Shown here in pieces: positions 2,350-51,944 of a DNA stretch of 53,162 nt (position 1 is its first letter; every line of letters begins with the position of its first letter). The DNA is from a virus (lineage: Duplodnaviria; Caudoviricetes): positions 1 to 53,162 of IMG/VR virus record IMGVR_UViG_3300036766_000094. The stretch is one strand, 5' to 3'. A program made the position numbers and the translations under genes. Below the pieces are notes generated by a model. The model did not search any database. It was given only the letters and a program-made list of their open reading frames with translations, and was not told the origin of the DNA.

Positions 2350-2680
2350 GCCATCCTCCCGCAGAAAACTCCCGTAACTCCCAAGCCAAGCGAGCCCACC
2401 GCAAATACTTCTGCTGAGTCTCGTAGGATGATTCGTCCCACGGTCCCCAATGCAGTTTGGCGGCGAACTTGTCCTCCGCCTCGTTGATCTGCCGTCTCCG
2501 GTCGGCCATGTACATGCGTTCCGCCAACTGTTCGGCGGTGCCGATGTCCGCTGGTGCGGTCTGCGCCTGCTCGGCCTCGCGGACCAGCAATTCGACGGCA
2601 GCGCGTAATGGCGCTATGTCAGACTGGCTCAACGCCACCAACGGCACCAACCGCATGATTTCCTCGCCCCGCGCGCTCAT
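2333..2680 (-). CDS. hypothetical protein in GC-rich island
   Basis: ATGA overlap with the epimerase stop; GC-rich codon usage. Confidence 0.6.
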   Translation of the reverse strand: MSARGEEIMRLVPLVALSQSDIAPLRAAVELLVREAEQAQTAPADIGTAEQLAERMYMADRRRQINEAEDKFAAKLHWGPWDESSYETQQKYLRWARLAWELREFSAGGWLVRVL

Positions 2681-3567
2681 CGTTCAATCTCCATATGTCT
2701 CTTATAATAGAAAATTGTATTATCTAATCCATATTTCCAACCAGCCATATCTGTATAACAAGAATTCATAGCAACAACAACTGACCTTTCATGTTCGCCG
2801 GCGCGCATTGGAACCTCAACAATATCTCCTCGTCCAATACGTTCAATAATGTCATTAGCGATGTCCCAAACTCTCAATCCAATACCAGAACCAACTTCAA
2901 TTGGATTTGGGAATTTTATTCCACTGGCTACTCGTTCCAGTGTTTCAACTAACATACGTGCCACATCAACCACATAAATCAAATCCATTGTTCCACAATT
3001 ATCTACGCCACCATAGACAGTAATTGTTTGGTTACGTAATGCTTGATTAATAAATGTGGGGACTATCTTCTTGATTTTACCCCATTTTTGTCTGGGACCA
3101 TAAGCATTAAATGCTCTAACGACCGCGATAGGAGTATCGAAATTGTGTTGATACATCAAAGCATAACGTTCAGCAGCAGTTTTAGATATGCTATATGTGT
3201 TGTTCTCAAAATGATTACCAACTCCAATAATTACACAAGGAATCTTAAAGTTATTGACAGCATTCAAAATGCTTAATGTTCCATTAACATTAACATCATT
3301 TGTTAGTTTTGCTTGGGATATATTCTCAGAAGTACCTAACAATCCAGCTAAATGGATGACTCCATCTACTGTTTGAACAGCACTATAAATTGCTGCTTCG
3401 TCACGAATGTCGCAAACGAAACAGTTACATTCATCTAAATATTCAGTTTCATCAGTTCGTGCTATTCGTCTTACTGTTGTAGTTACTTCAATACCTAATG
3501 ATAACAATTTCTCAATTACATACCCTGCGATAAATCCTGTGCCGCCTGTTACCAATACACGTTTCAT
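2677..3567 (-). CDS. NAD-dependent NDP-sugar epimerase/dehydratase (extended SDR)
   Basis: TGGTGFIA Rossmann motif, VIHLAG, YSISK (YxxxK), RAFNAYGP, DLIYVVD. Confidence 0.93.
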   Translation of the reverse strand: MKRVLVTGGTGFIAGYVIEKLLSLGIEVTTTVRRIARTDETEYLDECNCFVCDIRDEAAIYSAVQTVDGVIHLAGLLGTSENISQAKLTNDVNVNGTLSILNAVNNFKIPCVIIGVGNHFENNTYSISKTAAERYALMYQHNFDTPIAVVRAFNAYGPRQKWGKIKKIVPTFINQALRNQTITVYGGVDNCGTMDLIYVVDVARMLVETLERVASGIKFPNPIEVGSGIGLRVWDIANDIIERIGRGDIVEVPMRAGEHERSVVVAMNSCYTDMAGWKYGLDNTIFYYKRHMEIER

Positions 3568-3754: not shown

Positions 3755-5419
3755 TTATATCTCGCCACGGGGAACCGTCTGACTATTAAAGCCGCTTCCA
3801 TCTACATACTTCTCCGCAGCCCATCTTCCAGTCTCAGGACCGGCTACTTTATATGTGGAGCGGATTCTATTGTCAGTAGAAATTTTACAGTTTAGATAAG
3901 ACGAACGTAGTTTCTCTTTTTCATTCAAGCGCATAATTAATGTTATTATTGCTAACTTCAGTCGCCATTCTTGCTTCTTCTCTTCAGTTTTGTATTCGAT
4001 TATTTTGTTATTACATAGGCTTAGTAAACTTACCAAAGCATCTTCATCGACTGTAATTCCACCTTCATGGTTCTTTCGCGCGGGTAATTCTAAGAACTCA
4101 TACAGGATTTCTATTTTCTGGTTGCGGGTTACAGCACTCTTCTGAATTTTCTTATGTGAGGAAACCAAAAATCCATTTGTTAGCGAATCTAACATTTCAC
4201 TATTCTTAGCTATAGATTCATTGACGCTATTTCTCATTAATGTTAATCGTTCATTATCAACCCTCATGCCACTTCTCATAATATGGTGTGCAACTGGTAA
4301 CATTGACAATTCAAATTCAAAGACTTTCTTCCAATTTGGAACTCTATTAATTAGTGGTTCTTGAGCACGTTTGATTTCTAAAGTACAACAAACATCTTTA
4401 ATGTTGTATTGCCATAAGGCTTTTCTATCTATCTTGTCTGACCAAGATTTTCCATCTTCATCATCAGCTCGTCCTTCAAACTTGTAATAAGGTTCGCGGG
4501 TGTAGATTGAGGTTAAGAATGCTAAGCTTTTAGGTAGCTCTGGGAACATAGCGTGGGCAGCTATTAATGTGTCCCAAGCATAGTTATTGACACTAAATCC
4601 ATGCATTGCTAAAAAGTTAACATCATGTGTTCCGAATTGAAATATCTTTGGGATATTTGATTCTAATAAACGTTTCAAGCAACTCATTGTATGAGAGCTA
4701 TTGTCCCATACTATACAATATCCGGCGTTTGGTTCAGCGCTAAATCCAACACAAGCTAAATAAGGACCAAAGTTTTCTATGTCTACAGAGAGTTCAGATG
4801 ACTGCAATAATCGTTCAGTAACTTCCTCTAACAATAATGTATTCTTATCAACTATAACGAATTCTCTTTGTGGTAAGTTGAATTCGTTGAATAGACTATC
4901 ACTCGCAATACGGCGCAAATCATAATCAAATATTGGATATAAAGTTGCATCTCTAACGACGGCGCTTGGATGGTACGTTGGAATAATTTTGACATCTTCT
5001 AAATCCTTCCACGCTGATCTTATTATAGAAGAACGCCAATTGCGTATAGATGGCTTTGGTGGATTTACTAAATACTTTAAGGGGTTGACTCCTAATGGGA
5101 CGACCACCATTGGTTTAGTTTTTCGATTAGCAAAGTATGTCTCCAGCTCTTTAATTCCTTCAGATAAATACGTTGTAGATTCAATAGCAGCAAACTCATT
5201 TCCAGTGGGTTGATAGTGGCATAGGTTCGCCAGACGCACATCTTGCCTTCTAATTCCATTTCGTAAGAGGACAGATTCAAGTTTTTGTCCACTATCACCC
5301 ACAAATGGCCGCTTTTGTTCTCTTTCATTAGTTCCTGGACTTTCTCCAATAAATACAATTGAAGCTTCTTCTGGGCCTTCGTCTGGGACGTATGTGTCTG
5401 AGACGATTGGGCTATTCAT
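3755..5419 (-). CDS. polA: DNA polymerase family A N-terminal half: family-4-like uracil-DNA glycosylase domain + 3'-5' exonuclease + thumb
   Basis: UDG motifs FIGESPG, RPFVGDSG, TYHPSA; Exo I VDIE and Exo III YNIKD; ends with ETGRW...NSQTVPR, equivalent to TGRLSS..NLQNIPR. Confidence 0.92.
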   Translation of the reverse strand: MNSPIVSDTYVPDEGPEEASIVFIGESPGTNEREQKRPFVGDSGQKLESVLLRNGIRRQDVRLANLCHYQPTGNEFAAIESTTYLSEGIKELETYFANRKTKPMVVVPLGVNPLKYLVNPPKPSIRNWRSSIIRSAWKDLEDVKIIPTYHPSAVVRDATLYPIFDYDLRRIASDSLFNEFNLPQREFVIVDKNTLLLEEVTERLLQSSELSVDIENFGPYLACVGFSAEPNAGYCIVWDNSSHTMSCLKRLLESNIPKIFQFGTHDVNFLAMHGFSVNNYAWDTLIAAHAMFPELPKSLAFLTSIYTREPYYKFEGRADDEDGKSWSDKIDRKALWQYNIKDVCCTLEIKRAQEPLINRVPNWKKVFEFELSMLPVAHHIMRSGMRVDNERLTLMRNSVNESIAKNSEMLDSLTNGFLVSSHKKIQKSAVTRNQKIEILYEFLELPARKNHEGGITVDEDALVSLLSLCNNKIIEYKTEEKKQEWRLKLAIITLIMRLNEKEKLRSSYLNCKISTDNRIRSTYKVAGPETGRWAAEKYVDGSGFNSQTVPRGEI

Positions 5420-6137: not shown

Positions 6138-6307
6138 TATCTATATTTCCACTCTATGATTGTTAATCCTGACCATACAGTAAAACCAAGAACAATGAAT
6201 ATAATACCAAAAGTCTCTACAAATTTATCGTGTATGGCTGAACCTATAATTACGGCTGATATTCCAAATACACAACACATTATTAAGAATGTCCGTTTTG
6301 GGTTCAT
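6137..6307 (-). CDS. 56-aa two-TM membrane protein (not in ORF track)
   Basis: MNPKRTFLIMCCVFGISAVIIG...FGIIFIVLGFTVW; TAATG overlaps on both sides. Confidence 0.6.
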   Translation of the reverse strand: MNPKRTFLIMCCVFGISAVIIGSAIHDKFVETFGIIFIVLGFTVWSGLTIIEWKYR

Positions 6308-6915: not shown

Positions 6916-7030
6916 GCGAGCTAACAAGACGAGTCCGGTGTCCGGTCCCCGAAATTTCTCTATTGGACCAGGCTCGGGGTTGGCGGCCTGAATGAGGCTT
7001 CGCGATAGCTCAGTTCGTCTGTTAGCTCGC
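6916..7030 (-). ncRNA. putative structured RNA closed by a 16-bp stem
   Basis: GCGAGCTAACAGACGA pairs with TCGTCT(T)GTTAGCTCGC; internal helices CTGGTCC/GGACCGG and CTGAG/TTCAG; GC-rich intergenic. Confidence 0.65.
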
Positions 7031-7033
7031 CAA

Positions 7034-7127
7034 TATATCGGGTGAGAGTCGAACTCACAATTCACTATTTATTAGAATCGCCATACTAATAAATAGCACT
7101 CCTATCCAATTAGAGTAATCCGATATA
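7034..7127 (-). ncRNA. tRNA-like RNA with a 12-bp extended stem in place of the anticodon arm
   Basis: Acceptor TATATCGG/CCGATATA, D-loop AATTGGAT, T-arm GTGAG-TTCGACT-CTCAC, central GCTATTTATTAG/CTAATAAATAGT. Confidence 0.75.
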
Positions 7128-15662: not shown

Positions 15663-15880
15663 ATCGTCCCTACTCTAATTTCAGATTTTGGCCTGCCAGA
15701 AAGAATTCTGTCCAGCTCTAAGCGAAATGATTCTGGATACACTACTTGTTTCTTAAATGGCCGATTTGTGTAAGCACGGAATAAGTCTCTAATATCTTCG
15801 TTTGTGATTGTATATTTAATCATTGTGCCGCGTCTAAATAAAGAGAGTCGCGGAATGAACGAGTAAACAAAGCACCACAT
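15659..15880 (-). CDS. hypothetical protein (start probably MIKYT at 15823)
   Basis: Packed ORF. Confidence 0.5.
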   Translation of the reverse strand: MWCFVYSFIPRLSLFRRGTMIKYTITNEDIRDLFRAYTNRPFKKQVVYPESFRLELDRILSGRPKSEIRVGTM

Positions 15881-16110
15881 TCAGGTCTGGCTAACAACAT
15901 GTTGATTAATTCATCTTTAGTTGTAACGTGATGGAACAAAGGATTGCAAGGAATTACTGTTGGAGCTTTGTGTAACACAAAAGGCCGCCTCGTTTGAAGA
16001 AAAGCGGCAATTGCTGTGATTACTAGAATTGTGAATAACATACCAAATAGCACTGTTATGTTGTGTTCTTTATTATTTCGTTTGACTGTAATATTAAATG
16101 GCTGAATCAT
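15820..16110 (-). CDS. single-TM hypothetical protein
   Basis: Hydrophobic stretch ITVLFGMLFTILVITAIAAFL; GGAG RBS. Confidence 0.6.
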   Translation of the reverse strand: MIQPFNITVKRNNKEHNITVLFGMLFTILVITAIAAFLQTRRPFVLHKAPTVIPCNPLFHHVTTKDELINMLLARPECGALFTRSFRDSLYLDAAQ

Positions 16111-16141
16111 ACTTAGGAACTCCGGTAGCTATTGAAGAAAA

Positions 16142-16282
16142 AAGAATCGTGTAGCACCAATCTTGTTTGCACGTAATTCTTTTGACAACAAGAGTTTGAT
16201 ATAATTGGTCCGGTTTTCAGTTGTTCCATTACGTTGGGTAGACTGAGTGGTGCCAATTACCTATGATGCTACACGAATTCTT
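16142..16282 (-). ncRNA. structured RNA unit 6: multi-stem junction with kissing loops
   Basis: Closing stem TCGTGTAGCATCA/TGGTGCTACACGA; inner stems TAATTGG/CCAATTA, TCAGT/ACTGA, TCTTGTT/AACAAGA; loops ACGTAAT and ATTACGT are complementary. Confidence 0.75.
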
Positions 16283-16292
16283 GTATTTTAGA

Positions 16293-16393
16293 TTGAGGGA
16301 GAATAACTAGACCAGTTATGCAATTTTGGTCAAGCCACGTCCACTATAGCTTATTGCACTTCACTATAGTTACTAGGTTACATTCTCCCTCAA
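16293..16393 (-). ncRNA. structured RNA unit 5: three-way junction with kissing loops
   Basis: TTGAGGGAGAAT/ATTCTCCCTCAA; hairpins ACTATAG/CTATAGT and GACCA/TGGTC; loops GTGCAAT and ATTGCAT can pair. Confidence 0.75.
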
Positions 16394-16394
16394 A

Positions 16395-16467
16395 TGACGC
16401 CCGTGGGAATTGAACCCACAACTTCCTGATTAAAAGTCAGGTACTCTACCGATTGAGTTAGAGCGTC
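16395..16467 (-). tRNA. tRNA-Lys (anticodon TTT), no encoded CCA
   Basis: GACGCTC/GGGCGTC+A, D-arm ACTC-AATCGGTA-GAGT, CCTGA-CTTTTAA-TCAGG, GTGGG-TTCAATT-CCCAC. Confidence 0.96.
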
Positions 16468-16479
16468 TTTTACTTTTGT

Positions 16480-16577
16480 AAGGCAGCTTGACAGGTTATG
16501 ATAACTCTTTTTCCCTGTTAACTCTATTAGATGTTATCATTTTACGCCAGGTGCGAGGATACAACCTGCCAAGCCTT
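16480..16577 (-). ncRNA. structured RNA unit 4
   Basis: GCTTGGCAGGTTGT/ATAACCTGTCAAGC (14 bp, two G-U pairs on the minus strand); inner ATGATAAC/GTTATCAT. Confidence 0.7.
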
Positions 16578-16583
16578 TTTACT

Positions 16584-16713
16584 TTGGAGAGTGTGAGTTT
16601 TTGTTGACCGTTTTGACTCACTAGGCGAGTCGTGGCAGGAATTCACCAACGGGATACGCGCCGCCGCTATAGCTCAAGTCATTATTATAAGACGCGGCTT
16701 TTTGACTCTCCAA
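16584..16713 (-). ncRNA. structured RNA unit 3 (multibranch)
   Basis: TTGGAGAGT/ACTCTCCAA; inner GCCGC/GCGGC, CCGTT/AACGG, GACTCGC/GTGAGTC. Confidence 0.68.
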
Positions 16714-16725
16714 TTTTCAAAGAAC
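16714..16725 (-). promoter_or_regulatory. boxA-like antitermination site
   Basis: GTTCTTTGAAAA resembles rrn boxA and directly follows a hairpin (16730-16770). Confidence 0.6.
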
Positions 16726-16729
16726 AATT

Positions 16730-16770
16730 GTGGGGATGTTACTGACACCGTTTTATTGGTACATCCCCAC
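16730..16770 (-). ncRNA. hairpin unit 2 (boxB-like position)
   Basis: GTGGGGATGT/ACATCCCCAC. Confidence 0.65.
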
Positions 16771-16777
16771 GGGCAAC

Positions 16778-16864
16778 AAACTTGTGTGGAACACTACATG
16801 GAATCCTTACAACTTTGTTGTGTTATCTCCAGTAGTCGCGTTTTAGACTCGCCCACACAAGTTT
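16778..16864 (-). ncRNA. structured RNA unit 1
   Basis: AAACTTGTGTGG/CCACACAAGTTT; inner ACTAC-TGGA/TCCA-T-GTAGT and ACAAC/GTTGT. Confidence 0.7.
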
Positions 16865-16934
16865 TGTTTCTACTGTTTTAGATTCCTCAAGTTTCCTCAC
16901 TTTCAATTAGTTTGTTTTCCCTATTGTGCCTCTC

Positions 16935-16963
16935 AATCTAACATGACCAGCCCAAAAACGCAA
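16935..16963 (-). promoter_or_regulatory. sigma70-type promoter for the RNA array
   Basis: TTGCGT-17 nt-TAGATT with extended TG; same TGyTAGATTGA core as the promoters at 21167 and 22536. Confidence 0.75.
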
Positions 16964-16972
16964 GGGCCAATC

Positions 16973-17075
16973 CTAGAGCCTCTAGGGCGGTCTAGGCTCC
17001 AATCTTCATACTTGAATCTACCTAGCGGCCCTTGCCAATCCGTCGTGCGCCCTAGAGGCTCCTAGAGCGTTCTAG
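16973..17075. repeat. seven helically phased CTAG tetramers in a symmetric array
   Basis: CTAG at 16973, 16982, 16992, 17022, 17052, 17062, 17072. Confidence 0.8.
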
Positions 17076-17089
17076 ACCCCTTGCGGGAG

Positions 17090-17106
17090 CGTGTCAAAAT
17101 GACACG
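17090..17106. promoter_or_regulatory. palindromic operator-like site
   Basis: CGTGTCA-AAA-TGACACG; near copy at 21217-21232. Confidence 0.6.
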
Positions 17107-17110
17107 GAAT

Positions 17111-17437
17111 TCACGGTATTACTTTGGCTGCTTCCTTATCTTGCCACCTTAAATAACGCTTGAAAATACGTTTGGCTCGATTGGTTAATTGATAGCCATA
17201 TTCATCTTGCATTAGTTCTCGTAATTCTTGACGCTTTCGGCTAATTGATTCATTAATAGACGACATACTCAAAATCTCTTTCATTCGCTTTCCATTCTTA
17301 CGCCAATCTCTTCCTTTGTTTTTTGCGTTGCGGAATATTTCCGCTGCACTATCTCCGGTTAGTTTGTGTTTAGCAATCGTTATGATTGCTGCTATTAGTC
17401 CGGCTTTGCGTAGTCTGGAACCGCCTTTTATGGACAT
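17111..17437 (-). CDS. basic hypothetical protein
   Basis: Arg/Lys-rich ORF; GGAG RBS. Confidence 0.6.
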   Translation of the reverse strand: MSIKGGSRLRKAGLIAAIITIAKHKLTGDSAAEIFRNAKNKGRDWRKNGKRMKEILSMSSINESISRKRQELRELMQDEYGYQLTNRAKRIFKRYLRWQDKEAAKVIP

Positions 17438-18302: not shown

Positions 18303-18512
18303 TCAAAATGCCTCTAAACTCTCTACGTCCATGACGCAATTTATAAACATTTTCGGTGCGTGTAGGTCTGTTCTATCTTTGAGTAAAAATACTTCTTTTT
18401 CGCGAACGTGGCCGAAGTGTTTCAGTACCGTTGCCGCTTCTTCAACGCTTGACGAATTGACTACTACTAAGTTCGTTCCATCTAGTTGATAATTCATTAT
18501 CTTTTCCTCCAA
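18303..18512 (-). CDS. hypothetical protein
   Basis: GGAGG RBS before MNYQL, coupled to the helicase stop. Confidence 0.55.
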   Translation of the reverse strand: MEEKIMNYQLDGTNLVVVNSSSVEEAATVLKHFGHVREKEVFLLKDRTDLHAPKMFINCVMDVESLEAF

Positions 18513-20623
18513 GCTTTCTTGCTCATTTCTTCTTTGAGCATTTTGATTATATCTAAAGCCATAGATGAATTACGAACACTATTCAAATCGTCAATGGTTC
18601 CACTTACTAATGCAAACTTCCTTGCTCTTAAATCCGCTATCCAATCTTCAATTGTGTTGGCGGCATTTAGATAGTAGCTATCTAGTCCGTGCTCATTAGA
18701 TAATCTTCCATACGCGCGCCCTTCGCATTGTTCGTGATAAGCTGGCGCCCACAAAGGGTCAACAAATATAACCGCCATTGCTTTGTCTAAGTCTAATCCT
18801 TCACGAACGGCCATAGAACTACAAACTGCAAAATGAATAGACTTAGAAGTTTGGAACTCTTCAACTAATTTCATACGTTCAGAGAATTCAACTTCACCAG
18901 TTATAGTAATAGCTTCTCCACCCAAACGCTTTGCAATTGCGTGGCAAGTACCTACGAATTGAGAATAGATTAGGATTTTATTCTCTGTTTCGTCGTAATA
19001 ATTCAATGCTGTTTCAACCGCGTGTTCGATTTTATCATCGGAGCAGATTTGTTTTAAACGGGTAATTTGAGCGAGTATTGATGTAATAGACATTTCATTC
19101 ATCAAAGCGCCAGATAGTTTATCTATTTCTTCATAAACTCCAGCTAATGCTTTTTCATATCTCATGCGCGCATTGTCGCTTAATTCGTGAGACTCGTCTA
19201 TTCTATTGATTGGTGGCAAATCTTTCTGGACTTCGGATTTCAATTTTCTTAGCATAAATGGTTTAAGCATTTCCTTAAATGCTGTAGGATTCCGGCAAGT
19301 TCCTGTGTTGTATTCCCATTGATACACGAAACCGTCGTAATTATTAAACATTTCTGGGTTAATGAAACGTAAAGCTGTGAAAGCTTCACGGGGTCTATTA
19401 ATTATTGGTGTTCCGCTTAGTAAAGAACACTTACCTATGTTGCTCATTTGAATTGCGGCTTGTGCTCTAGCTGTAGTTGGGTTTTTCATGTAGTGATATT
19501 CATCGAAAATGATTCTGTCGAAACCAGCTAGATTCAAAACCAGAACCCAAGGCCAAATTGTTTGTTCGGTTACTTTCTTTGTTCCATTATCTGATGATTC
19601 TATGTTACGTTTAATCTTAGCAGCTAGCGAGTCATAACTAATAATGACCCACTTGTAATCTTTCTTTTTCAATATCATGTTAGTTAAATATTCTGTTACA
19701 CGTTCTCCATCTATGATTAAGCTATGTTCATTTGTGAATTTGTAAATCTGGCGAGCCCAATTGATTCTTAGAGAAGCTGGACAAACTACTAGATTGTAGG
19801 ATTGCTCCAAATAAGCAATACTAATTGCCATTGGAGTTTTTCCAAGTCCTGGCTGATGACCTAAAATTCCCCTCTTAGTAACTTGGAGAAACTTACCACC
19901 AACCTTTTGAAACGGTCTTAATGTCATACCATTTGGAAACTTCGGGTCAAACTCTGGACAATCATCTAACTGAGCTATTGTGTCAGCTAGTGCGCGTGTT
20001 TCTAATTCGGAAGTTATTAGCTTATTGGCTTCTTCTGTCCATTGTACCCAAGTTATTGGAAACTTGTGTTCTTCAGCGTGAGAACGTAATGTAGTGAAAA
20101 GAATATAGCCTTGGCTCAACTGGACATTATACTTAGATTCGCCAGTTGAAGCTATATTACCTAGGTGTTTGTAACCATCGACCCTTCTAATTATTCCGCT
20201 ATCGGCTTCTGGACTTATTAAGATTTCCAAATTCTTTTTGGAAGTAGAAACGTCAATTGTGTAGTGTGGACCGTTCAGTATACGATAAAACTTCTTCTTC
20301 AATACATCATCTTTGAAACGGATTTGACTGCTATCAAAATGTTCCATAAATGTCGGCCACATTAAGACATTTACAGCCACATATTCGGGATAGCTGTAAA
20401 TACCTTTCTTATATAGCTCATTATGTAATTCGGAAGATATTGGACGTGAAGGTTTCATATAAAAAACCATTCCACTTATTTGGTACATTCCCAAAAAGAA
20501 TGGTTTCCTAGATTCATCTTCTAGAATAGCTGAATCCCAATCAGCTAAATATTGAGTCTTAATGGCTCTCAATTCAGCTAAACGCTTTTCTAGTTGTTCG
20601 ATTTCTTCGTTTGGATTAGTCAT
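18497..20623 (-). CDS. SNF2-family (SF2) helicase/annealase
   Basis: LRPFQ, QPGLGKT, VVCPASL..NW, DEYH, LSGTP..N, EGLDL, Q.EGRAY.R. Confidence 0.93.
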   Translation of the reverse strand: MTNPNEEIEQLEKRLAELRAIKTQYLADWDSAILEDESRKPFFLGMYQISGMVFYMKPSRPISSELHNELYKKGIYSYPEYVAVNVLMWPTFMEHFDSSQIRFKDDVLKKKFYRILNGPHYTIDVSTSKKNLEILISPEADSGIIRRVDGYKHLGNIASTGESKYNVQLSQGYILFTTLRSHAEEHKFPITWVQWTEEANKLITSELETRALADTIAQLDDCPEFDPKFPNGMTLRPFQKVGGKFLQVTKRGILGHQPGLGKTPMAISIAYLEQSYNLVVCPASLRINWARQIYKFTNEHSLIIDGERVTEYLTNMILKKKDYKWVIISYDSLAAKIKRNIESSDNGTKKVTEQTIWPWVLVLNLAGFDRIIFDEYHYMKNPTTARAQAAIQMSNIGKCSLLSGTPIINRPREAFTALRFINPEMFNNYDGFVYQWEYNTGTCRNPTAFKEMLKPFMLRKLKSEVQKDLPPINRIDESHELSDNARMRYEKALAGVYEEIDKLSGALMNEMSITSILAQITRLKQICSDDKIEHAVETALNYYDETENKILIYSQFVGTCHAIAKRLGGEAITITGEVEFSERMKLVEEFQTSKSIHFAVCSSMAVREGLDLDKAMAVIFVDPLWAPAYHEQCEGRAYGRLSNEHGLDSYYLNAANTIEDWIADLRARKFALVSGTIDDLNSVRNSSMALDIIKMLKEEMSKKAWRKR

Positions 20624-23192: not shown

Positions 23193-23281
23193 GAGAGGTC
23201 ATCTTTAGAGGTCGCTAGGGACGACGGTCTGGACGGGATGGTACGTTCAGACCCATTCGTGTGTATTATATTGAGGAGAAT

Positions 23282-25657
23282 ATGCATTTTAGTAAATTTC
23301 AAAACGCAGCAAGAAAATTAGGTGGTTCTATATTTACTGTAGTTCCACCTATTAGTGGTAGTGTCGATTCTTCTAAATGCACAGTAGGAGTGTCTGCTTC
23401 TACAGTTGTGTCTGGTTCATTAATTACAGTTACATTAACATTAAAAGACGCCAACAATGTTCAATTAACAAGCGCGGCTGGTTTAACTATAGTCCCAACG
23501 AAAAGTGGTGGTTCTGCAACCGGAACGTTATCAAGTGTAACTGACGTTGGAAATGGTACATTAACTTGGACATATACGGGAGTCTTAAAAGGAACAGCTC
23601 AAACGTTAGGTTGTACAATTAACGACGTTACAGTTACTTCAACATTACCGACTTGTAGTGTTACAGTAGGAGCAATTGATAGAACAGTTTCAGTAGTAAC
23701 TGTATCTGCTACAAGTAGAATAAATGGAGGAGCAGTAATCATATGTACATTACAAGCTAAAGATGCCGCTGGTAATAATCTAACTACTGGCGGCTCTACT
23801 ATTGTTATTAGTAGTTCTGGTGGAACTTCTACAGGTACATTTGGTGCTACAACAGATGTTGGTAATGGAACATACACAAGAACATTTACACCAACTGGTC
23901 CAGCTTTAGGTGATGGTACAGCTACAACATTAACAGCTACAATTGGCGGGCAATCAGTTACTACAACAATGCCTACAATAGTTGTTCGTGGTGCTTCTTT
24001 GAGTTTGAGTACAGTTACGTTAGCATCAAGTTCAGCAGCGGCAGGTGGTTCAAACGTAACAGTAACACTAACAGCAAAAGATTCAACTGGAACCCAAATG
24101 CCAAGTGGTGGATTAACGGCATTGTTCGATCATAGTGGAGGAACAGCAGTTATAAGTATAGGAAGCGTTACAGACAATAATAATGGTACTTACACAGCGT
24201 CAATAACACCAACAACAGAAGGTACAGCAACTACATTAAGCGCAACTTTAAATAGTTCTACAGTAACTAGCAGTATGCCGACGTTCACGGTGACGGCGGC
24301 GTTCGACTACTACCTCGCCACGACCGGCAGCGACGGCAACAACGGAACGAGCCCGTCCACACCGTTTAGGACGTGGGGAAAGATGTGGTCGGTCGTGACG
24401 GCAGGCAAAACCGTGCAGGTGGCAGACGGTTCGTATACCTCAGCGGACCCTTCCGTAGAAAAAGCGGGCACTTCTGGAAGTCCGATTGTTGTTTCGGCGG
24501 CCAATGATGGTGGCGCGGTCATCACGGACGGGCTCGATCTACGCGGTAACGCCTACTTGACATTCCGTGGGTTTAAGATCACGGGCGTCTCGGCTGCGGT
24601 TACTTTGGTAAGCAACGGGGTCGGGAAGCCGACGCACCACTGCATCTTCCAGCGGATTGGGTTCCAGGCGACCGACACGACGCTCAACAACAACGCAGCT
24701 TTCGACCTTAGCGATGGCACGCATCACTGTCTGCTAGAGGATTGTTGGGGCTGGGGCGGCGGGCGTTATGTGGTGATGGCCTACGGCGGCCCCGGCGGCA
24801 GTCCGCCGAACACGACCTGCGACTATAACACGTTCCGGCGCCTCGTGCTCCGTATGGGGCCATCTACGAGTACGTCGGGGAACCCGCAGGCGGCGCTCGC
24901 ACTCTACTACGCCAGCCACAACATCGTGGAAAATTGCATCGCGATAAACGGGCGGCCCGCGAGCGATTCTTCTAACGCCGGCTTCTATCTGACCGGACAC
25001 GCGCCGCCGCCTAACACCGACGACAACAAGTTCTATGGTTGTCTTGTGGTAGATCACGATGGGTACGGCTGGTATGTGGACGAGAGTGGTGCCGTCGCCA
25101 ACGATAACGTACTGGTGGATTGTGTGGCGTGGGACTGTGCCTCGGGTGGCTTTACCACGGGCGGCGGCACGATTAACCCGTTCACTTTGGATCATTGCAC
25201 GGGTGGCGCGAACACACTTGATGGGTTCGAGTTCTTCGCCAGTACTGTGGTCATGACCAATAACGTCTTCAAAGGCAACGGCGGCTTTGGAGCGAAGAAG
25301 TCTAGTAGTACACTTTCAGTTAACGACCATAACGGATATTTTGGGAACGCCTCGGGGGCGCGGTCTGGATTCTCGGCCGGTACGGGCGACCTGACGTCCG
25401 ATCCGGTCCTTTCCTACATTGCACGGATTGAAGCGGGGTCGCCTTACAAGAACGCCGGTTCTTCCGGTGACATCGGCGCGAACGTAGTCAATCGCTACGT
25501 AGATGGCGCGCTCACGGGTGACGCGCTGTGGCCCTGGCCCTACGAGGCGCGGATTCACGCCGACATGGCCGCGGACGATAATCGCGGCTTCGCGGCGGTG
25601 GGCGAAACACTGACGCACTACGTCTGGAATTATCTCGGGAACGGGAGCCCGTACTAA
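23282..25657 (+). CDS. virion surface/receptor-binding protein: three invasin-type Ig-like repeats + right-handed beta-helix domain
   Basis: Repeated TLxxKD...GG...TDxGNGTYTxT modules; YYLATTGSDGNNG.S.STPF.T then pectin-lyase-like repeats; ATG at 23282 follows GAGGAG. Confidence 0.8.
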   Translation: MHFSKFQNAARKLGGSIFTVVPPISGSVDSSKCTVGVSASTVVSGSLITVTLTLKDANNVQLTSAAGLTIVPTKSGGSATGTLSSVTDVGNGTLTWTYTGVLKGTAQTLGCTINDVTVTSTLPTCSVTVGAIDRTVSVVTVSATSRINGGAVIICTLQAKDAAGNNLTTGGSTIVISSSGGTSTGTFGATTDVGNGTYTRTFTPTGPALGDGTATTLTATIGGQSVTTTMPTIVVRGASLSLSTVTLASSSAAAGGSNVTVTLTAKDSTGTQMPSGGLTALFDHSGGTAVISIGSVTDNNNGTYTASITPTTEGTATTLSATLNSSTVTSSMPTFTVTAAFDYYLATTGSDGNNGTSPSTPFRTWGKMWSVVTAGKTVQVADGSYTSADPSVEKAGTSGSPIVVSAANDGGAVITDGLDLRGNAYLTFRGFKITGVSAAVTLVSNGVGKPTHHCIFQRIGFQATDTTLNNNAAFDLSDGTHHCLLEDCWGWGGGRYVVMAYGGPGGSPPNTTCDYNTFRRLVLRMGPSTSTSGNPQAALALYYASHNIVENCIAINGRPASDSSNAGFYLTGHAPPPNTDDNKFYGCLVVDHDGYGWYVDESGAVANDNVLVDCVAWDCASGGFTTGGGTINPFTLDHCTGGANTLDGFEFFASTVVMTNNVFKGNGGFGAKKSSSTLSVNDHNGYFGNASGARSGFSAGTGDLTSDPVLSYIARIEAGSPYKNAGSSGDIGANVVNRYVDGALTGDALWPWPYEARIHADMAADDNRGFAAVGETLTHYVWNYLGNGSPY

Positions 25658-28581: not shown

Positions 28582-29226
28582 GTGAATGAAGCGATTAACA
28601 AGGAAACCACTGTTAGTCCGACTGAAAAAATCAACCGGACTGATGTCCAAGTCAATCAAAGCCCAACTCAAACGCCTCCGGGTCAAGAAATAACCTTCGG
28701 AGTTAGAAGGGCTAAGATTAATCGTTGGATTCCACGTCGTTGGGAAGAGAACTATACACAAATTGTTATTTTAGCTTCTTTAGGATTGAAGTCTAATACG
28801 CAATTAGGTATTCAGTTCAATTTTACACCACAACACATTAGTAACATTCTAAATAGTCCACAAGCAAGCGTAATTCGTAAGCAGATACATGAAACAGTTG
28901 TAGGTACAGTTTCTAAGGACGTACCTGCTTCGTTAAATGCAATGGCGGCTACAGCTCTAGAAAGATTAAAGACAATTATTGAAAATCCAGCATTAGTAGA
29001 AACTAAAACAGAATTCATTGCAAGTTTGTCGCTTAAATTGTTAGCCGCAAGCGGGCAAGTTAAAGATGATTCAGTTTCTCCTATAAATGTAGGAAAAGCT
29101 ATCATATTTACAGCAACCGATGCTGAAGCAATGCGAGAAGCTATTAGAAAGAGCAATGAAGCAGATAGATTAAATGAAGGTAGGTCAATTGAACCTCCAT
29201 TAAGGTTGCTTAGAGAAGCTAAATGA
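28582..29226 (+). CDS. putative terminase small subunit
   Basis: HTH-like SNTQLGIQFNFTPQHISNIL; ATGA overlap with TerL. Confidence 0.55.
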   Translation: MNEAINKETTVSPTEKINRTDVQVNQSPTQTPPGQEITFGVRRAKINRWIPRRWEENYTQIVILASLGLKSNTQLGIQFNFTPQHISNILNSPQASVIRKQIHETVVGTVSKDVPASLNAMAATALERLKTIIENPALVETKTEFIASLSLKLLAASGQVKDDSVSPINVGKAIIFTATDAEAMREAIRKSNEADRLNEGRSIEPPLRLLREAK

Positions 29227-30809
29227 TAAGTTCAGACGAGCAAGTCGTCTCTCAAACTGATATAGATACTGCTCGACGTTTAGCAGAAAAGCGTTATGAG
29301 CATTATAGCACCGATGACATAGCTCATTTGCGTCGTAAATGTCAAGTAGATGGTATGTTTTTAGGTGCAGGTGTCTTAGATTATACTAGATTGAGTCCAA
29401 ATCTTCATGGTCATTTGTTTCGTTGGTTGAAAGCTCACAAAAATGACCGTTTCAAGATGGTTTTGAAGCCGCGTTCACATTATAAGTCTACAGTTAGCCA
29501 CGTTGACAGCATTCAAACAGTTTTACCACCAATAGAAGGGGAGATTTACCCTTACAATTTAGGTCCAGAAGCAAGAATCATGATTGGGCATGAAGTTTTG
29601 GAGAAATCAGCACAATTTATTCATGAATTAACGTCTCACTTCACGTCTAATCACCGTTTAATGGGACTTTTTCCAGAATTAGTACCAAATGCACGTAAAC
29701 AACGCATAAACAAGTATCAATTAGAGCTTCCTAGACAATCACATTGGTCAGAACCTACATTTGAAGCATTTGGTGTAGGTGGAAAATCTCAAGGACGCCA
29801 TTACGACATTTTGAAGTTGGATGACATTTATGGAGAGTCAGCTAGAGATAGTGCAGCAGAAAGAGCAACAACAATTCAATGGTTTAAAGGTATTCAAGCA
29901 TTCTTTACAAGATTAAAGTACTCTCATTTGTGGATGATTGGTACACGTTATGATTTAGACGATGTTTATAGTGTAGCAATGGAGGATTACGGCAGCTTAA
30001 TGCAGTACTACATTAGAAAAGTTGTCGAAGATGGAGTTTACATATTTCCGGAAGAATTCGACAATGATGCAGTTCAAATTCTAAAGAAGGACATTAAGAC
30101 TTGGAACGCTTGGTATCTTAATGACCCATATGAAGGTACAAAGAGATTTGAACAGGACTGGTTAGCATTTTACAACAAGATTGAAGGACGAGATGCATTA
30201 GCTATAATGACTGGTGAGTCAAGGGAGCTAATTGAATACGAGAACTTAGATAGAGTAATCATCTTTGACCCAGCAGTAACAGGTACATTTGGAGTGGTTG
30301 TAACAGGTACAGATTCACAACGAGTTTATGAATTAGAGAGCTTCAGAGGTTCTTTAAAAGTTCCAGACCAGATTAATATGTTGTTCAATCTTGTATTACG
30401 TTACAAGCCTCGTGTAGTTGCAATTGAATCAGTATTATTTAGTGCGCTTTATCAAGATATATTAAGACTTGAAATGCGTGAACGGAGAATTAACTTCAAT
30501 ATAGTTCCAGTTAAGCCAAGAAAGCCTGGAACCGGACGATTAAATAAAACAGAGCGGATTGAAATTTTAAGTCCATATTTTTCAAGTAAGAAGATTTGGT
30601 TTAATCCAGATCACAAAGATATTATTCAAGAGTACAAAGACTACGGAACTACAACAGACATTCATGTGTTAGATGCATTAGCTTATGGTCCAGAATTGTG
30701 GCGCTTCCACGACATTAGACGCTATGAACGTTATAAGAAAATTGAAACTGATATGTTAAAGAATCGTGACGCGGATACAGGATACTCTAGAATATACGCT
30801 GAAGGTTAA
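29223..30809 (+). CDS. terL: terminase large subunit
   Basis: PRSHYKST Walker A, GRHYDILKLDDI Walker B, IGTR, VIIFDPA nuclease, IESV, H.LDALAY. Confidence 0.93.
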   Translation: MISSDEQVVSQTDIDTARRLAEKRYEHYSTDDIAHLRRKCQVDGMFLGAGVLDYTRLSPNLHGHLFRWLKAHKNDRFKMVLKPRSHYKSTVSHVDSIQTVLPPIEGEIYPYNLGPEARIMIGHEVLEKSAQFIHELTSHFTSNHRLMGLFPELVPNARKQRINKYQLELPRQSHWSEPTFEAFGVGGKSQGRHYDILKLDDIYGESARDSAAERATTIQWFKGIQAFFTRLKYSHLWMIGTRYDLDDVYSVAMEDYGSLMQYYIRKVVEDGVYIFPEEFDNDAVQILKKDIKTWNAWYLNDPYEGTKRFEQDWLAFYNKIEGRDALAIMTGESRELIEYENLDRVIIFDPAVTGTFGVVVTGTDSQRVYELESFRGSLKVPDQINMLFNLVLRYKPRVVAIESVLFSALYQDILRLEMRERRINFNIVPVKPRKPGTGRLNKTERIEILSPYFSSKKIWFNPDHKDIIQEYKDYGTTTDIHVLDALAYGPELWRFHDIRRYERYKKIETDMLKNRDADTGYSRIYAEG

Positions 30810-32690
30810 ATGCCCTATCCAAGACAGTTAAATTTAGGCGAAGAGATTGAGAATAAGTTAAAAGCGTTCTTGCAAAATGAGATAACACTTCATCTTGCGG
30901 AACGTACTGATTACATTCAAGATTTGAAGAACTGGCAAAGAGATTATTGGGTTCCGGTTCCCACAGAGAATGCTACTACTCCATTTGTAGGAGCTTCTCG
31001 TATTATCATTCCGTTGACAGCAATTGCTGTAGAAGCAATTCACGCAAGAGTCTGGATGGCATTATTTGGAACAGAACCATTTGCAAGTGCTAAGTTTCAT
31101 GCATTAACAATTGACCATGAGAACGCATTTAGGAAGTTCTATAACTATGAGTTGAAGCACGGGATTAAAGCTCATCATAGTTTGGAAAGTCCAATTTTGG
31201 ATGTTGAGAAGTATGGTACTGGTATAGTCAAGCCAGATTATTGTTACTTGACTAAAACAGCAATGAGACCTTCACCTTTAGACCCGACTAAAGAAGAAGA
31301 AATTCCAATAGTTATTAAGAGAGGTGCAGTTTTCCAACATTGTCCGATTGCAAATTACATACAACCTTATAGTGCTACAGACCCACAAACAGCAGAATGG
31401 TGTGGAGAGATTCATTTAGAGACTCCGTATTACATGACTCAATTAGAAAAGTCTGGATTTTTCATCCCTGGCACACTAGAAAAGTTGAAGTCATATTATC
31501 AAAGAACTGTGGTTGGTCCAACGACTCAAGACGTTCCAGATTCTCAAAAGCGGATGGAACATACAGTTCCAATTTGGCCGAAGCAAGTTGAATGGTTTGA
31601 AATTTGGTTAAGTTTTAATGTAGATGATGACCCGAAAGGCGAGACCAAAGAAATTGTAGTGCATTGGCACAGAGCTTCTAACACACTTATGTCTATTATG
31701 TATAATTGGTATACAGATTTACGTCGTCCTTACGAAATTGGAAATTTCTTCAAAGTTGAAGGTAGATGGAAAGGCATTGGAATTTGTAAGCAGTCTGAGC
31801 AGTTCCAGAAAATCGTTACAACCTTACATCGTCAACGTATTGATGCTGGTACAATTGCAAACATGAGGATGTTTAAGGTTCACAGATTAAGCAATTATGG
31901 TCCGGACGAACCGATATTTCCTGGTAAAATGTGGATTCTAGACGACATGACCCACATTGAACCGATTCAAGCAATGGAAGTTTACACAAGCGCATTTGCT
32001 AATGAACAAGCAGCTTTATTATATGAACAACAAAGAGTAGGAGTTAATGAATTAACACAAGGAATGCCGCAACAAGGTACTCCTGGAACAGCTACAGATA
32101 CAACATTACGATTACAAGAGGGTTCTAAGAAACAAGATTTAAATCTCTATAACATAAGAGATTTCGTAAGCCGTTGTTATGTAGATGGGTTGTTAATAAC
32201 ACAACAATTTGGTAGTAGAACGTTAGATATGTACATGATGACTCATCCTGAAGATGCACAATTGATAGCTCAAGTGTTGAGTGCTCCACCTGAATTGATT
32301 AAAGATTCAGCTTTATTTGAGCTTACTGCTGTAGGTTTAAATAGCAATAAATCTGTAGACAGAACGAATTGGATGCAAATTGGTCAAGTTACTCAACAAT
32401 TCTTAACTGGAATTCTCCAGGCTGCTCAATTAGGTGTTCCGTTAGCAGTAGGACCAATTGCTCAAGAAGGTATATTAGCATCAAGTGAGATATTTGAACA
32501 GTTCTTAGAAACATACGACGTGCGTGATGAAAGCAAGATTTCTATGAAGAAGTTCTTAATTAAGCTCTTTGCTGATTTAGCTCAAGCTCAGTCGAAAGGA
32601 CAAAATGGCGGACCAATTCTTCCAGGACAGCCCGGCCAACCCGTTGGACAACTCGGACCTGGAAACCCTGGCGGCGTTCAGCAAATCTAG
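30810..32690 (+). CDS. portal protein (podovirus type)
   Basis: 626 aa directly after TerL; KYGTGIVK, IFPGKMW, TAT motif; Gly/Gln tail. Confidence 0.85.
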   Translation: MPYPRQLNLGEEIENKLKAFLQNEITLHLAERTDYIQDLKNWQRDYWVPVPTENATTPFVGASRIIIPLTAIAVEAIHARVWMALFGTEPFASAKFHALTIDHENAFRKFYNYELKHGIKAHHSLESPILDVEKYGTGIVKPDYCYLTKTAMRPSPLDPTKEEEIPIVIKRGAVFQHCPIANYIQPYSATDPQTAEWCGEIHLETPYYMTQLEKSGFFIPGTLEKLKSYYQRTVVGPTTQDVPDSQKRMEHTVPIWPKQVEWFEIWLSFNVDDDPKGETKEIVVHWHRASNTLMSIMYNWYTDLRRPYEIGNFFKVEGRWKGIGICKQSEQFQKIVTTLHRQRIDAGTIANMRMFKVHRLSNYGPDEPIFPGKMWILDDMTHIEPIQAMEVYTSAFANEQAALLYEQQRVGVNELTQGMPQQGTPGTATDTTLRLQEGSKKQDLNLYNIRDFVSRCYVDGLLITQQFGSRTLDMYMMTHPEDAQLIAQVLSAPPELIKDSALFELTAVGLNSNKSVDRTNWMQIGQVTQQFLTGILQAAQLGVPLAVGPIAQEGILASSEIFEQFLETYDVRDESKISMKKFLIKLFADLAQAQSKGQNGGPILPGQPGQPVGQLGPGNPGGVQQI

Positions 32691-34645: not shown

Positions 34646-35560
34646 ATGAACATCGGCCAAGCCAGAATCCTAACTAGGCTCGGACTACGAAGCGACTTCC
34701 GAGACCAGTATGTGTTAGTACCCGCAGAATGGTCACAGTATGCTAAAGATTTAACTATGACCCGTCCAGAGATTGAAGCGGCAGTTATTGCTGGGCCGCA
34801 TCGTATGCTGGAAGTTGGTGATTTGGAAGATACCACGTTCTTTGATGCAAAGCTTCTTGGTAAGATGGTCGGTCTTGTTAAGGAATTCAAGGTTGGTTAC
34901 TTTGTGAGTCGTAGGGCTCTTGAAGATGACCAATACAACAAGATTAATCAAGGCGCCAAGTGGCTAGGTGAAGCAGCTCGTTTGACGAAAGAATATCGTG
35001 CTGCTGCATTCTTAGATGACGCTTTCGCTGGTTCTGTTTACAAGACTTTTGATGGTCTTGCTGTTTTGCATAACGCACACACGCTTTTCAATAGTGAAAC
35101 AAGCGCAACAATGGCAAATACGCCAGCTTCCACAGCTCAAGTTAGCTTTAGTCTAGCAGGCTGGGCGGCTCTTCTTGAATTGGCTGAACTAGCCAAAAAC
35201 TGGAATGGCGACCCTGAACCTCTTATGATTGACAAGGCAATCTATAGCCCGAAGTATATCGGTCTTGCAATGCAGATTTTCGCACAAGGCCGCGAACCGT
35301 TTAGCGGAGCAGATGCTCAAATTAACCAAGTTGCTAAGAGACTTGGGAATTTGACGCAAGTTGTTTCGCATTACAAGTCAAGTGTTGAAACTTACTTTGG
35401 CGTTAGTACAGCCAAGAGTGACTTCCAACATCTAGCTCGTGTTGGTCTTAGCATTAAGGATACAGTTGACGAAGAAGGTACTCTTTATGTTCGCGCTCGT
35501 GAAAGATTTGGTTTCTGGTGCCCGGACTTCCACGGTTGGTTTGGGATGAATCCTTCGTAA
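34646..35560 (+). CDS. major capsid protein (HK97 fold)
   Basis: 304 aa, G..VSR.ALEDDQY, DG.A....H, RARERFGF..PD..G.FG pattern; strong RBS. Confidence 0.85.
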   Translation: MNIGQARILTRLGLRSDFRDQYVLVPAEWSQYAKDLTMTRPEIEAAVIAGPHRMLEVGDLEDTTFFDAKLLGKMVGLVKEFKVGYFVSRRALEDDQYNKINQGAKWLGEAARLTKEYRAAAFLDDAFAGSVYKTFDGLAVLHNAHTLFNSETSATMANTPASTAQVSFSLAGWAALLELAELAKNWNGDPEPLMIDKAIYSPKYIGLAMQIFAQGREPFSGADAQINQVAKRLGNLTQVVSHYKSSVETYFGVSTAKSDFQHLARVGLSIKDTVDEEGTLYVRARERFGFWCPDFHGWFGMNPS

Positions 35561-51627: not shown

Positions 51628-51944
51628 GCTAGTTTCCCTCCATGCCTAAATGGTCTAGTTTTGTTGAATTCCATTTTAGCTAACAATGCAGCTTCTAATG
51701 GTATTTTGTGTTGACTACAACTATCAAAGATACGTATCAATACATCCGCGAATTCAACTGCAATTCCTTCTGGCTTTCCATCAACAACATGGTAGTAAGG
51801 ATTTTCAACTCTATATTCTTCAAGTGCTTCTGATAATTCAGAATGCATTAAAGCAATTTCTTCTGGAATTTCCCTTGGTCTGGAATGCCAACCGTGATCT
51901 TCAGCGGTTTGCCAGCATTCGCGGATTAAGGATTCTAAGTTCAT
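51624..51944 (-). CDS. MazG-like nucleotide pyrophosphohydrolase
   Basis: ALMHSELSEALE, EFADVLIRIFD, KM.FN..R...HG. Confidence 0.88.
   Translation of the reverse strand: MNLESLIRECWQTAEDHGWHSRPREIPEEIALMHSELSEALEEYRVENPYYHVVDGKPEGIAVEFADVLIRIFDSCSQHKIPLEAALLAKMEFNKTRPFRHGGKLA

Follow-up and report, generated by a model that had tools for sequence, protein, structure and literature searches.

Complementary hairpin loops in two predicted three-way-junction RNAs directly downstream of a phage tRNA-Lys gene

The sequence that we analyzed (hereafter the window) is the complete IMG/VR virus record IMGVR_UViG_3300036766_000094, 53,162 bases long, and profile and domain assignments of its proteins identify it as a tailed phage by gene content. 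The minus strand carries all genes from position 1 to ~22900. Within this block lies a 1 kb non-coding island (16111-17110, minus strand), delimited from lists of open reading frames (ORFs) and flanked by the ORFs 17111-17437(-) and 15820-16110(-). The island is the phage's largest ORF-free gap and consists of stalk-closed, branched RNA modules, here called units 1 to 6, and one tRNA gene. This gene encodes tRNA-Lys with anticodon UUU (16395-16467, minus strand; called by ARAGORN and matched to Rfam RF00005 with 73.9 bits) and lacks an encoded CCA. Each module is closed by a long, near-perfect stem with two or three hairpins inside; the closing stems across the island measure 14, 12, ~9, ~15, 13, and ~18 bp, and each module beats its shuffles by 2.5 to 5 standard deviations (folding z −2.5 to −5). 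Our main subjects are units 5 and 6, the two modules that follow the tRNA, because in each of them two hairpin loops carry complementary 7-mers.

Unit 5 is a predicted three-way junction of 101 nt (16293-16393, minus strand; inverted repeats I7 and I23, minimum free energy (MFE) folds), and its stalk begins 2 nt past the last (discriminator) base of the tRNA. The closing stem P1 (16381-16393/16293-16305) has 13 bp, 12 of them Watson-Crick and one G-U. Inside it, P2 (16363-16370/16343-16350, 8 bp) carries the 12-nt loop GAA-GUGCAAU-AA, and P3 (16327-16331/16310-16314, 5 bp) carries the 12-nt loop AA-AUUGCAU-AAC. P3 extends across a U-U mismatch to ~8 layers (7 bp plus the mismatch), which is about the length of P2. 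The two complementary segments, GUGCAAU in loop 2 (16353-16359, minus strand) and AUUGCAU in loop 3 (16318-16324, minus strand), sit near the middle of their equally sized loops in the MFE fold. They match through six Watson-Crick pairs and one G-U pair, with a calculated duplex energy of −7.9 kcal/mol. On the plus strand, an A-C mismatch would stand in place of the G-U pair; this, together with the orientation of the genes and the tRNA, is why we read the island on the minus strand. The unit as a whole folds with a z of −4.7 against dinucleotide shuffles.

Unit 6 is a larger predicted three-way junction of 141 nt (16142-16282, minus strand; inverted repeats I6, I18, and I20, MFE folds). Its P1 (16264-16282/16142-16160) has ~18 bp with one bulge. 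P2 is built in two parts (16253-16260/16201-16208 and 16242-16246/16217-16221) and ends in a 20-nt loop with the segment ACGUAAU (16228-16234, minus strand; inverted repeat I19), while P3 (16187-16193/16161-16167, 7 bp) ends in a 19-nt loop with the segment AUUACGU (16171-16177, minus strand). All seven positions of this loop match are Watson-Crick pairs, and the duplex energy is −7.2 kcal/mol. In nested folds, the loop 2 segment has an unpaired probability of 0.88, and a competing nested fold would cost 6.2 kcal/mol to force and has a pair probability of 0.00. The folding z of the unit is −5.0 against dinucleotide shuffles.

These loop complementarities had been pointed out in an initial annotation made from the sequence alone, which placed both arms of each match in the hairpin loops of a junction. 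Our analysis agrees on both points: the matches lie at the positions given above, and all four segments fall in hairpin loops of MFE three-way junctions. The same annotation described the two units as unrelated in sequence and alike in topology, and this description also held, as MAFFT gave no real alignment of one unit with the other, neither of their covariance models matched the other unit, and the folds agreed. Paralogy of units 5 and 6 could therefore not be shown with either approach. For this reason, we did not count the differences between the two loop pairs (U-A vs. C-G, C-G vs. U-A, and G-U vs. A-U for unit 5 vs. unit 6, with AAU/AUU shared) as covariation.

A 7-mer inverted repeat somewhere within 100-150 nt matches chance expectation, so what matters is whether the two arms lie in neighboring hairpin loops. 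When the letters of the loops were shuffled, at least 7 contiguous pairs arose in 0.8% of the shuffles for unit 5 (G-U allowed) and in 0.5% for unit 6 (Watson-Crick only). We also scanned both strands of the window in 150-nt steps and scored adjacent hairpins within a stem of at least 5 bp. Four of the 380 predicted three-way junctions reached a loop match of 7, namely units 5 and 6 and two others (6142-6203 and 31783-31861) with closing stems of only 5 bp. The same scan of a relative, G001, found none among 365 junctions. Besides units 5 and 6, the background over the window and G001 thus amounts to 2 of 743 predicted three-way junctions, and at this rate a coincidental match in two adjacent, long-stalked units is unlikely. 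Judged on these predicted folds, the loop-loop feature is real and statistically unusual. The annotation had further suggested that unit 4 (16480-16584, minus strand; z −4.2), whose ~15 bp stalk closes a three-way junction just 5′ of the tRNA, has a weaker version of the contact. We do not consider this match notable, since CCUG/CAGG offers 4 bp and 86 of the 380 window junctions have at least as many, which is chance level.

The two loop pairs also appear to be specific. Duplexes between loops of different units reach −4.9 kcal/mol or weaker vs. −7.9 and −7.2 kcal/mol for the cognate pairs, so neither of the two units would interfere with the other. From the shared topology, it had been argued that tertiary structure is under selection in these units. 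This is plausible but unproven: loop pairing was rarer than chance in three controls, while proof through covariation would call for a homologue, and our searches returned none.

These searches covered several collections. A blastn search with the 1.5 kb region against 50,697 GenBank phage records gave a match to the tRNA-Lys only, and units 5 and 6 searched against the same records gave no match at E values up to 10. In IMG/VR, single-protein queries with the flanking small proteins and the SNF2 helicase (18497-20623) found no close relative of the phage. A further search with the helicase gave a single homologue at 58% identity (P0002, on a 14.8 kb Logan contig), and all others were at 41% or less. 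Searches with a helicase alignment (A1) yielded 80 loci from IMG/VR and 80 from JGI metagenomes, and the best near full-length matches among them were 38-39% identical. When the island was compared with 163 loci (~1.8 Mb) by blastn and nhmmer, the tRNA alone matched. Single-sequence covariance models (R1 and R2) run over 35 sources (416 kb) returned only self-matches, without a second copy in the window, and their best non-self E-values were 0.24 and 0.18. Among public sequencing runs, the stretch was contained in one sediment metagenome, the probable source, and no RNA run was listed. Within the contigs of that sample, a single contig covered the region, no variants were present, and the remaining contigs matched the tRNA only.

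Pattern searches gave a similar picture. A loop-anchored pattern had four matches in IMG/VR with folds unlike those of the units, which is approximately the number expected by chance on a rough, uncomputed estimate, and a pattern anchored on the 3′ end of tRNA-Lys had no matches. The stalk arms of unit 6 had no copies in 185,579 species genomes, and those of unit 5 had none in IMG/VR and one in the species genomes. We read the single match, inside the coding region for the Walker A motif of an ABC-ATPase, as chance.

Comparison with known RNA families was likewise negative. A cmscan of the whole window against Rfam 15 at the gathering score found tRNA only. In the segment 15800-17300, allowing E values up to 10, there was no purine riboswitch, pRNA, ROOL, GOLLD, manA, or Y RNA-like match, and no self-cleaving ribozyme of the hammerhead, twister, or HDV-like/theta types. 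Inspection by eye of the junction strands of units 5 and 6 showed no CUGAUGA/GAAA core. In the relatives, Rfam scans found no ROOL, GOLLD, or manA, and returned tRNAs and one twister ribozyme only. This last is a Twister-P5 ribozyme in the family-level relative L005 (1393-1502, plus strand; 53 bits against a threshold of 37.6), ~1.1 kb upstream of a tRNA-Met, and it indicates that ribozymes can be detected by search in this phage group. As far as sequence comparison reaches, units 5 and 6 fit no known RNA family and are without detectable relatives.

What the relatives do share is an arrangement. We surveyed the sequences that follow tRNA genes (trailers) and obtained 43 from 51 called tRNAs, the other 8 being duplicates or too near the end of a locus. 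Five of the 43 open with a stalked, branched module of at least 100 nt that starts no more than 4 nt past the tRNA: those of the window's tRNA-Lys, a tRNA-like gene elsewhere in the window, L007 tRNA-Pro, L087 tRNA-Tyr, and L109. The tRNA-like gene (7034-7126, minus strand) has an over-long anticodon arm. ARAGORN labels it “tRNA-???” and gives it an anticodon of four letters, and with the Rfam tRNA model it reaches 27.9 bits, just below the threshold of 29. A 115-nt module with four hairpins starts 3 nt past it (region 6916-7126, minus strand), closed by 11 uninterrupted base pairs, or 16 with one bulge by our reading of the fold. In L007, a 169-nt module with a 17-bp stalk (4549-4717, plus strand) starts at the first base past tRNA-Pro, and in L087 a 117-nt module lies 3 nt past tRNA-Tyr. 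G001 also has an 895-nt non-coding stretch (L082 1410-2312; G001:C1 ~47949-48843) with tRNA-Lys(UUU), ~670 nt of strongly folded modules, and tRNA-Gln; its first module is cloverleaf-like with three hairpins, and Rfam finds tRNAs only there. Thus, the phage group shares a habit of placing stalked modules beside tRNAs, and does not share their sequence.

The loop matches do not follow this habit. Among the 43 trailers, only that of the window's tRNA-Lys contained a loop-loop match of 7. The next best match was 6; it is AU-rich with ATG at its start, and we therefore read it as probably coding. The family-level relatives accordingly have stalked, branched modules after their tRNAs without loop-loop complementarity.

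Structured small RNAs beside phage tRNA genes are a known kind, and units 5 and 6 belong to it. By position, the closest known case is phage T4, whose record annotates tRNA-Arg, 1 nt, rnaD (119 nt), 6 nt, and rnaC (139 nt). rnaD and rnaC (species 2 and species 1) are processed, stable RNAs at the 3′ end of the T4 tRNA cluster. As with units 5 and 6, two small non-tRNA RNAs stand in tandem immediately past a phage tRNA and on its strand, with comparable lengths (119 and 139 nt vs. ~101 and ~141 nt) and a similar starting distance past the tRNA (1 nt in T4 and 2 nt for unit 5). However, the predicted fold of rnaC has a tRNA-like T-arm (GGUUCGAAUCC), from which the folds of units 5 and 6 differ, and the predicted folds of both T4 RNAs are without a long closing stalk. 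In our blastn search of the phage collection (E up to 10), units 5 and 6 showed no sequence similarity to the T4 RNAs.

By architecture, there are two further points of comparison. The pRNA of phage phi29 (RF00044) has a helix formed by its 5′ and 3′ ends, a three-way junction, and a pair of loops with mutual complementarity, an architecture that is kept across phages without sequence similarity. The predicted folds of units 5 and 6 share the closing helix, the junction, and the two complementary loops, with a loop match of 7 bp rather than the 4 bp of phi29 pRNA. The analogy to this RNA, drawn in the initial annotation, thus survives for the architecture, and fails for the family, as Rfam gave no match, and for the packaging context. 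Phi29 is a ~20 kb phage with protein-primed replication and a packaging ATPase that lacks a terminase nuclease, whereas the present genome has 53 kb, a conventional large terminase, an SU10-like portal, a primase, and a phrog_17 DNA polymerase, and it has two different RNAs beside a tRNA, unlike phi29. The terminase, portal, and primase make a pRNA-type packaging role unlikely. The second comparison is with the purine riboswitch (RF00167), in whose aptamer the loops of P2 and P3 of a three-way junction pair through two G-C pairs and base quadruples. Units 5 and 6 share the junction and the predicted contact between loops 2 and 3. Unlike the riboswitch, they have a P1 of 13-18 bp and a predicted loop contact that is a 7-bp helix, and they sit 3′ of a tRNA, without a purine-gene context, rather than in a 5′ untranslated region.

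Other phage RNAs provide a precedent for the loop contact itself. ROOL (RF03087) and GOLLD (RF01998) are phage RNAs found near tRNA islands, and kissing loops hold their tertiary and quaternary structure (PMC12286853). The manA RNAs (RF01745; <200 nt) form pentamers and 60-mers via intermolecular kissing loops, as described in a preprint (bioRxiv 10.64898/2026.07.01.735769). All three are phage-encoded near tRNAs, a trait taken from PMC12286853, and the island here likewise encloses a tRNA. Units 5 and 6, which are known here from sequence and predicted fold, are much simpler, with one junction each.

We tentatively take an intramolecular loop-loop clamp within a stable, processed RNA to be the more likely reading of units 5 and 6. 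The two units would be separate small RNAs of ~101 and ~141 nt derived from the minus-strand transcript of tRNA-Lys. The long closing stalk would insulate each unit, and the two arms of each junction would be tied together by a 7-bp loop-loop helix, with different 7-mers in the two units and no cross-reaction between them. Such a clamp could produce a compact, nuclease-resistant fold, and the RNAs might be released and protected through maturation of the tRNA on their 5′ side together with cleavage or pausing at the stalks. The analysis itself shows the predicted folds, the complementary loops and how rare these are, and the position and strand of the units. That the units are transcribed and processed, that their loops pair in vivo, and that they have any function is what we infer.

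Several observations count in favor of this clamp: the stability of both folds, the rarity and specificity of the loop matches, the strand and position of the units, the recurrence of stalked modules in the trailers of the phage group, and the precedent of kissing loops in phage RNAs near tRNA islands (PMC12286853). The geometry of the predicted folds also points in this direction. The arms of unit 5 are of about equal length and carry equal loops, which would suit a contact within one molecule, and in unit 6 the large, slack loops and the internal loop of P2 would allow one.

Other observations weigh against it. No homologue of unit 5 or unit 6 appeared in any collection searched, and the clamp thus has no support from covariation. 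In the non-coding gaps of three relatives, none of 233 adjacent hairpin pairs reached a loop match of 6, so the phage group does not conserve the kissing. The chance tests were post hoc and relied on fold prediction. A scan for intrinsic terminators called none, and promoter-like sites were no more common than in shuffles, while stem energies are similar on both strands and favor neither. In addition, a nested, rod-like alternative for unit 5 comes out at −33.7 kcal/mol, within 1.4 kcal/mol of the junction at −35.1. This fold arises if both hairpins half-open, and it turns the 7 bp into an ordinary stem that has a probability of ~0.4 in the nested ensemble. Finally, by our own uncomputed geometric reasoning, a tight junction with short arms leaves little steric room for a continuous 7-bp helix, and this strain would favor pairing between molecules.

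The rod fold, being nearly isoenergetic with the junction, is one argument for a simpler view. Here the modules would be genuine structured RNAs that act as spacers or in processing, with stalks around the tRNA as RNase III-type sites or as elements of stability, and the loop matches would be a coincidence or, in unit 5, part of a rod hairpin. We consider this possible, if on the unlikely side. Long stalks of 12-18 bp close every island module, the tRNAs of relatives are followed by stalked modules that do without a loop match, two chance 7-mers turned up among the window's other junctions, and the feature was picked after being seen. However, this view needs two adjacent, long-stalked units to match by accident against a background of 2 of 743. 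It also leaves aside that the 7-mers of unit 5 are near the center of two equal 12-nt loops, and that unit 6 has no competing nested fold of the kind that would explain unit 5.

The steric argument leads instead to pairing between copies, in which loop 2 of one molecule binds loop 3 of the next, as in the rings of phi29 pRNA and the assemblies of manA, ROOL, and GOLLD, and each unit forms its own homo-oligomer (a dimer, ring, or cage). In our judgment this is unlikely, even though the closing helix, three-way junction, and complementary loops are those of pRNA, a full 7-bp helix would be strained between short arms of one junction, and the cognate and cross-unit loop energies are separated well enough for two orthogonal 7-bp codes. 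Published cases add to its appeal: a conserved kissing loop of ROOL was first read as tertiary and proved quaternary (PMC12286853), and manA, at <200 nt, assembles by kissing loops (bioRxiv 10.64898/2026.07.01.735769). Yet the Rfam scans matched neither pRNA nor ROOL, GOLLD, or manA, the conventional large terminase, portal, and primase speak against packaging of the pRNA type, and with no homologue there is no covariation to draw on. Slightly less likely is the wider proposal that the two units are protomers of two orthogonal RNA-only assemblies within an uncatalogued class of phage tRNA-trailer or array RNAs defined by a stalk and a kissing-loop junction.

The sequence behind unit 6 could suggest a regulatory role, in which this unit acts in cis on ORF 15820-16110, as an aptamer like that of a riboswitch or through a stalk resembling a terminator. 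The stalk is followed by a U-run, a GGAG Shine-Dalgarno motif (16120-16123) lies 18 nt from the stalk end, and the ATG of the ORF (16110) lies at 31 nt; the purine-riboswitch fold, moreover, has the same topology. Still, we think this improbable, because the Rfam scan brought up no riboswitch family with E values as high as 10, the 18-bp P1 is too stable for switching, no terminator was called, and unit 5 follows the same design without a gene behind it. The ORF itself has no PHROG match.

Least probable is an element that acts as DNA or is mobile. The units would then be hairpins or cruciforms in an origin or packaging region, or miniature inverted-repeat elements with the stalks as their terminal repeats, as folding energies that are alike on both strands and inverted repeats bounding each unit would permit. 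A purely DNA-level element is disfavored by the tRNA gene in mid-island, the lack of direct-repeat iterons, and the G-U required by the loop pair of unit 5, and the lack of a second copy of the stalk arms (unit 6 in species genomes; unit 5 in IMG/VR and, apart from the one chance match, species genomes) argues against a miniature mobile one.

Structured RNAs without an assigned function continue to turn up next to tRNA genes in phages, such as T4 rnaC and rnaD, ROOL, and GOLLD, and recent cryo-electron microscopy has shown that several such RNAs build cages through kissing loops. If the loop codes of units 5 and 6 are really used, these units would be among the simplest natural examples, with 100-140 nt and one junction each, and they would be easy to examine through transcription, native gels, and loop mutants with compensatory changes. 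Should the loop matches be chance alone, 1 kb of unexplained, strongly folded RNA around tRNA-Lys(UUU) would remain. This tRNA is a target of anticodon nucleases, for example, PrrC and the PARIS effector, so the tRNA and its neighboring RNAs could form a counter-defence island. The tRNA set of the phage consists of Lys(UUU), Leu(CAA), and the odd tRNA-like gene.

The remainder of the island resembles units 5 and 6 in its stalked design. The MFE of the whole island is −329.7 (minus strand) and −316.6 kcal/mol (plus strand). Units 1-3 (16572-17066, minus strand; inverted repeats I4, I8, I2, and I13, and folds) have closing stems of 14 bp (16976-16989/17048-17061), 12 bp (16778-16789/16853-16864), and ~9 bp. 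A pseudoknot candidate of 9 perfect, GC-rich base pairs joins 17027-17035 and 16960-16968 (I13), and the motif occurs a third time at 17078-17085 (I17), where it could compete for the partner at 16960-16968. We set aside the long-range complements of 8-9 bp between modules (I13, I15, and I17), whose number is, by our own estimate, about that expected by chance in 1 kb. Small ORFs within the island, such as a 47-aa ORF at 16113-16256, had no Shine-Dalgarno sequence when read by eye.

Beyond the island, the assigned genes include the large terminase (29223-30809, phrog_38), the SU10-like portal (30810-32690), a capsid protein (34646-35560), the primase (51941-53128, phrog_14296) and a DNA polymerase (phrog_17, minus strand) in two separate pieces (3755-5419 and 6-782). 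Further genes encode a Sak4-like annealing protein, an exonuclease, an HNH endonuclease, a glycosyltransferase, and an endolysin. The polymerase pieces at 6-782 and 3755-5419 lie ~3 kb apart and match profile positions 995-1236 and 478-988, respectively, and between them are unrelated genes, including one for an NAD-dependent sugar epimerase (2677-3567). A 798-aa protein (23261-25657, plus strand) with Invasin-D3/Big_1 and beta-helix domains is probably a tail fibre or depolymerase, and its gene holds a GC-rich segment (0.57 GC at 24-26 kb vs. ~0.39 elsewhere). For the 1765-aa protein encoded at 45442-50739 (plus strand), a match to the ART-PolyVal ADP-ribosyltransferase domain is weak and below threshold.

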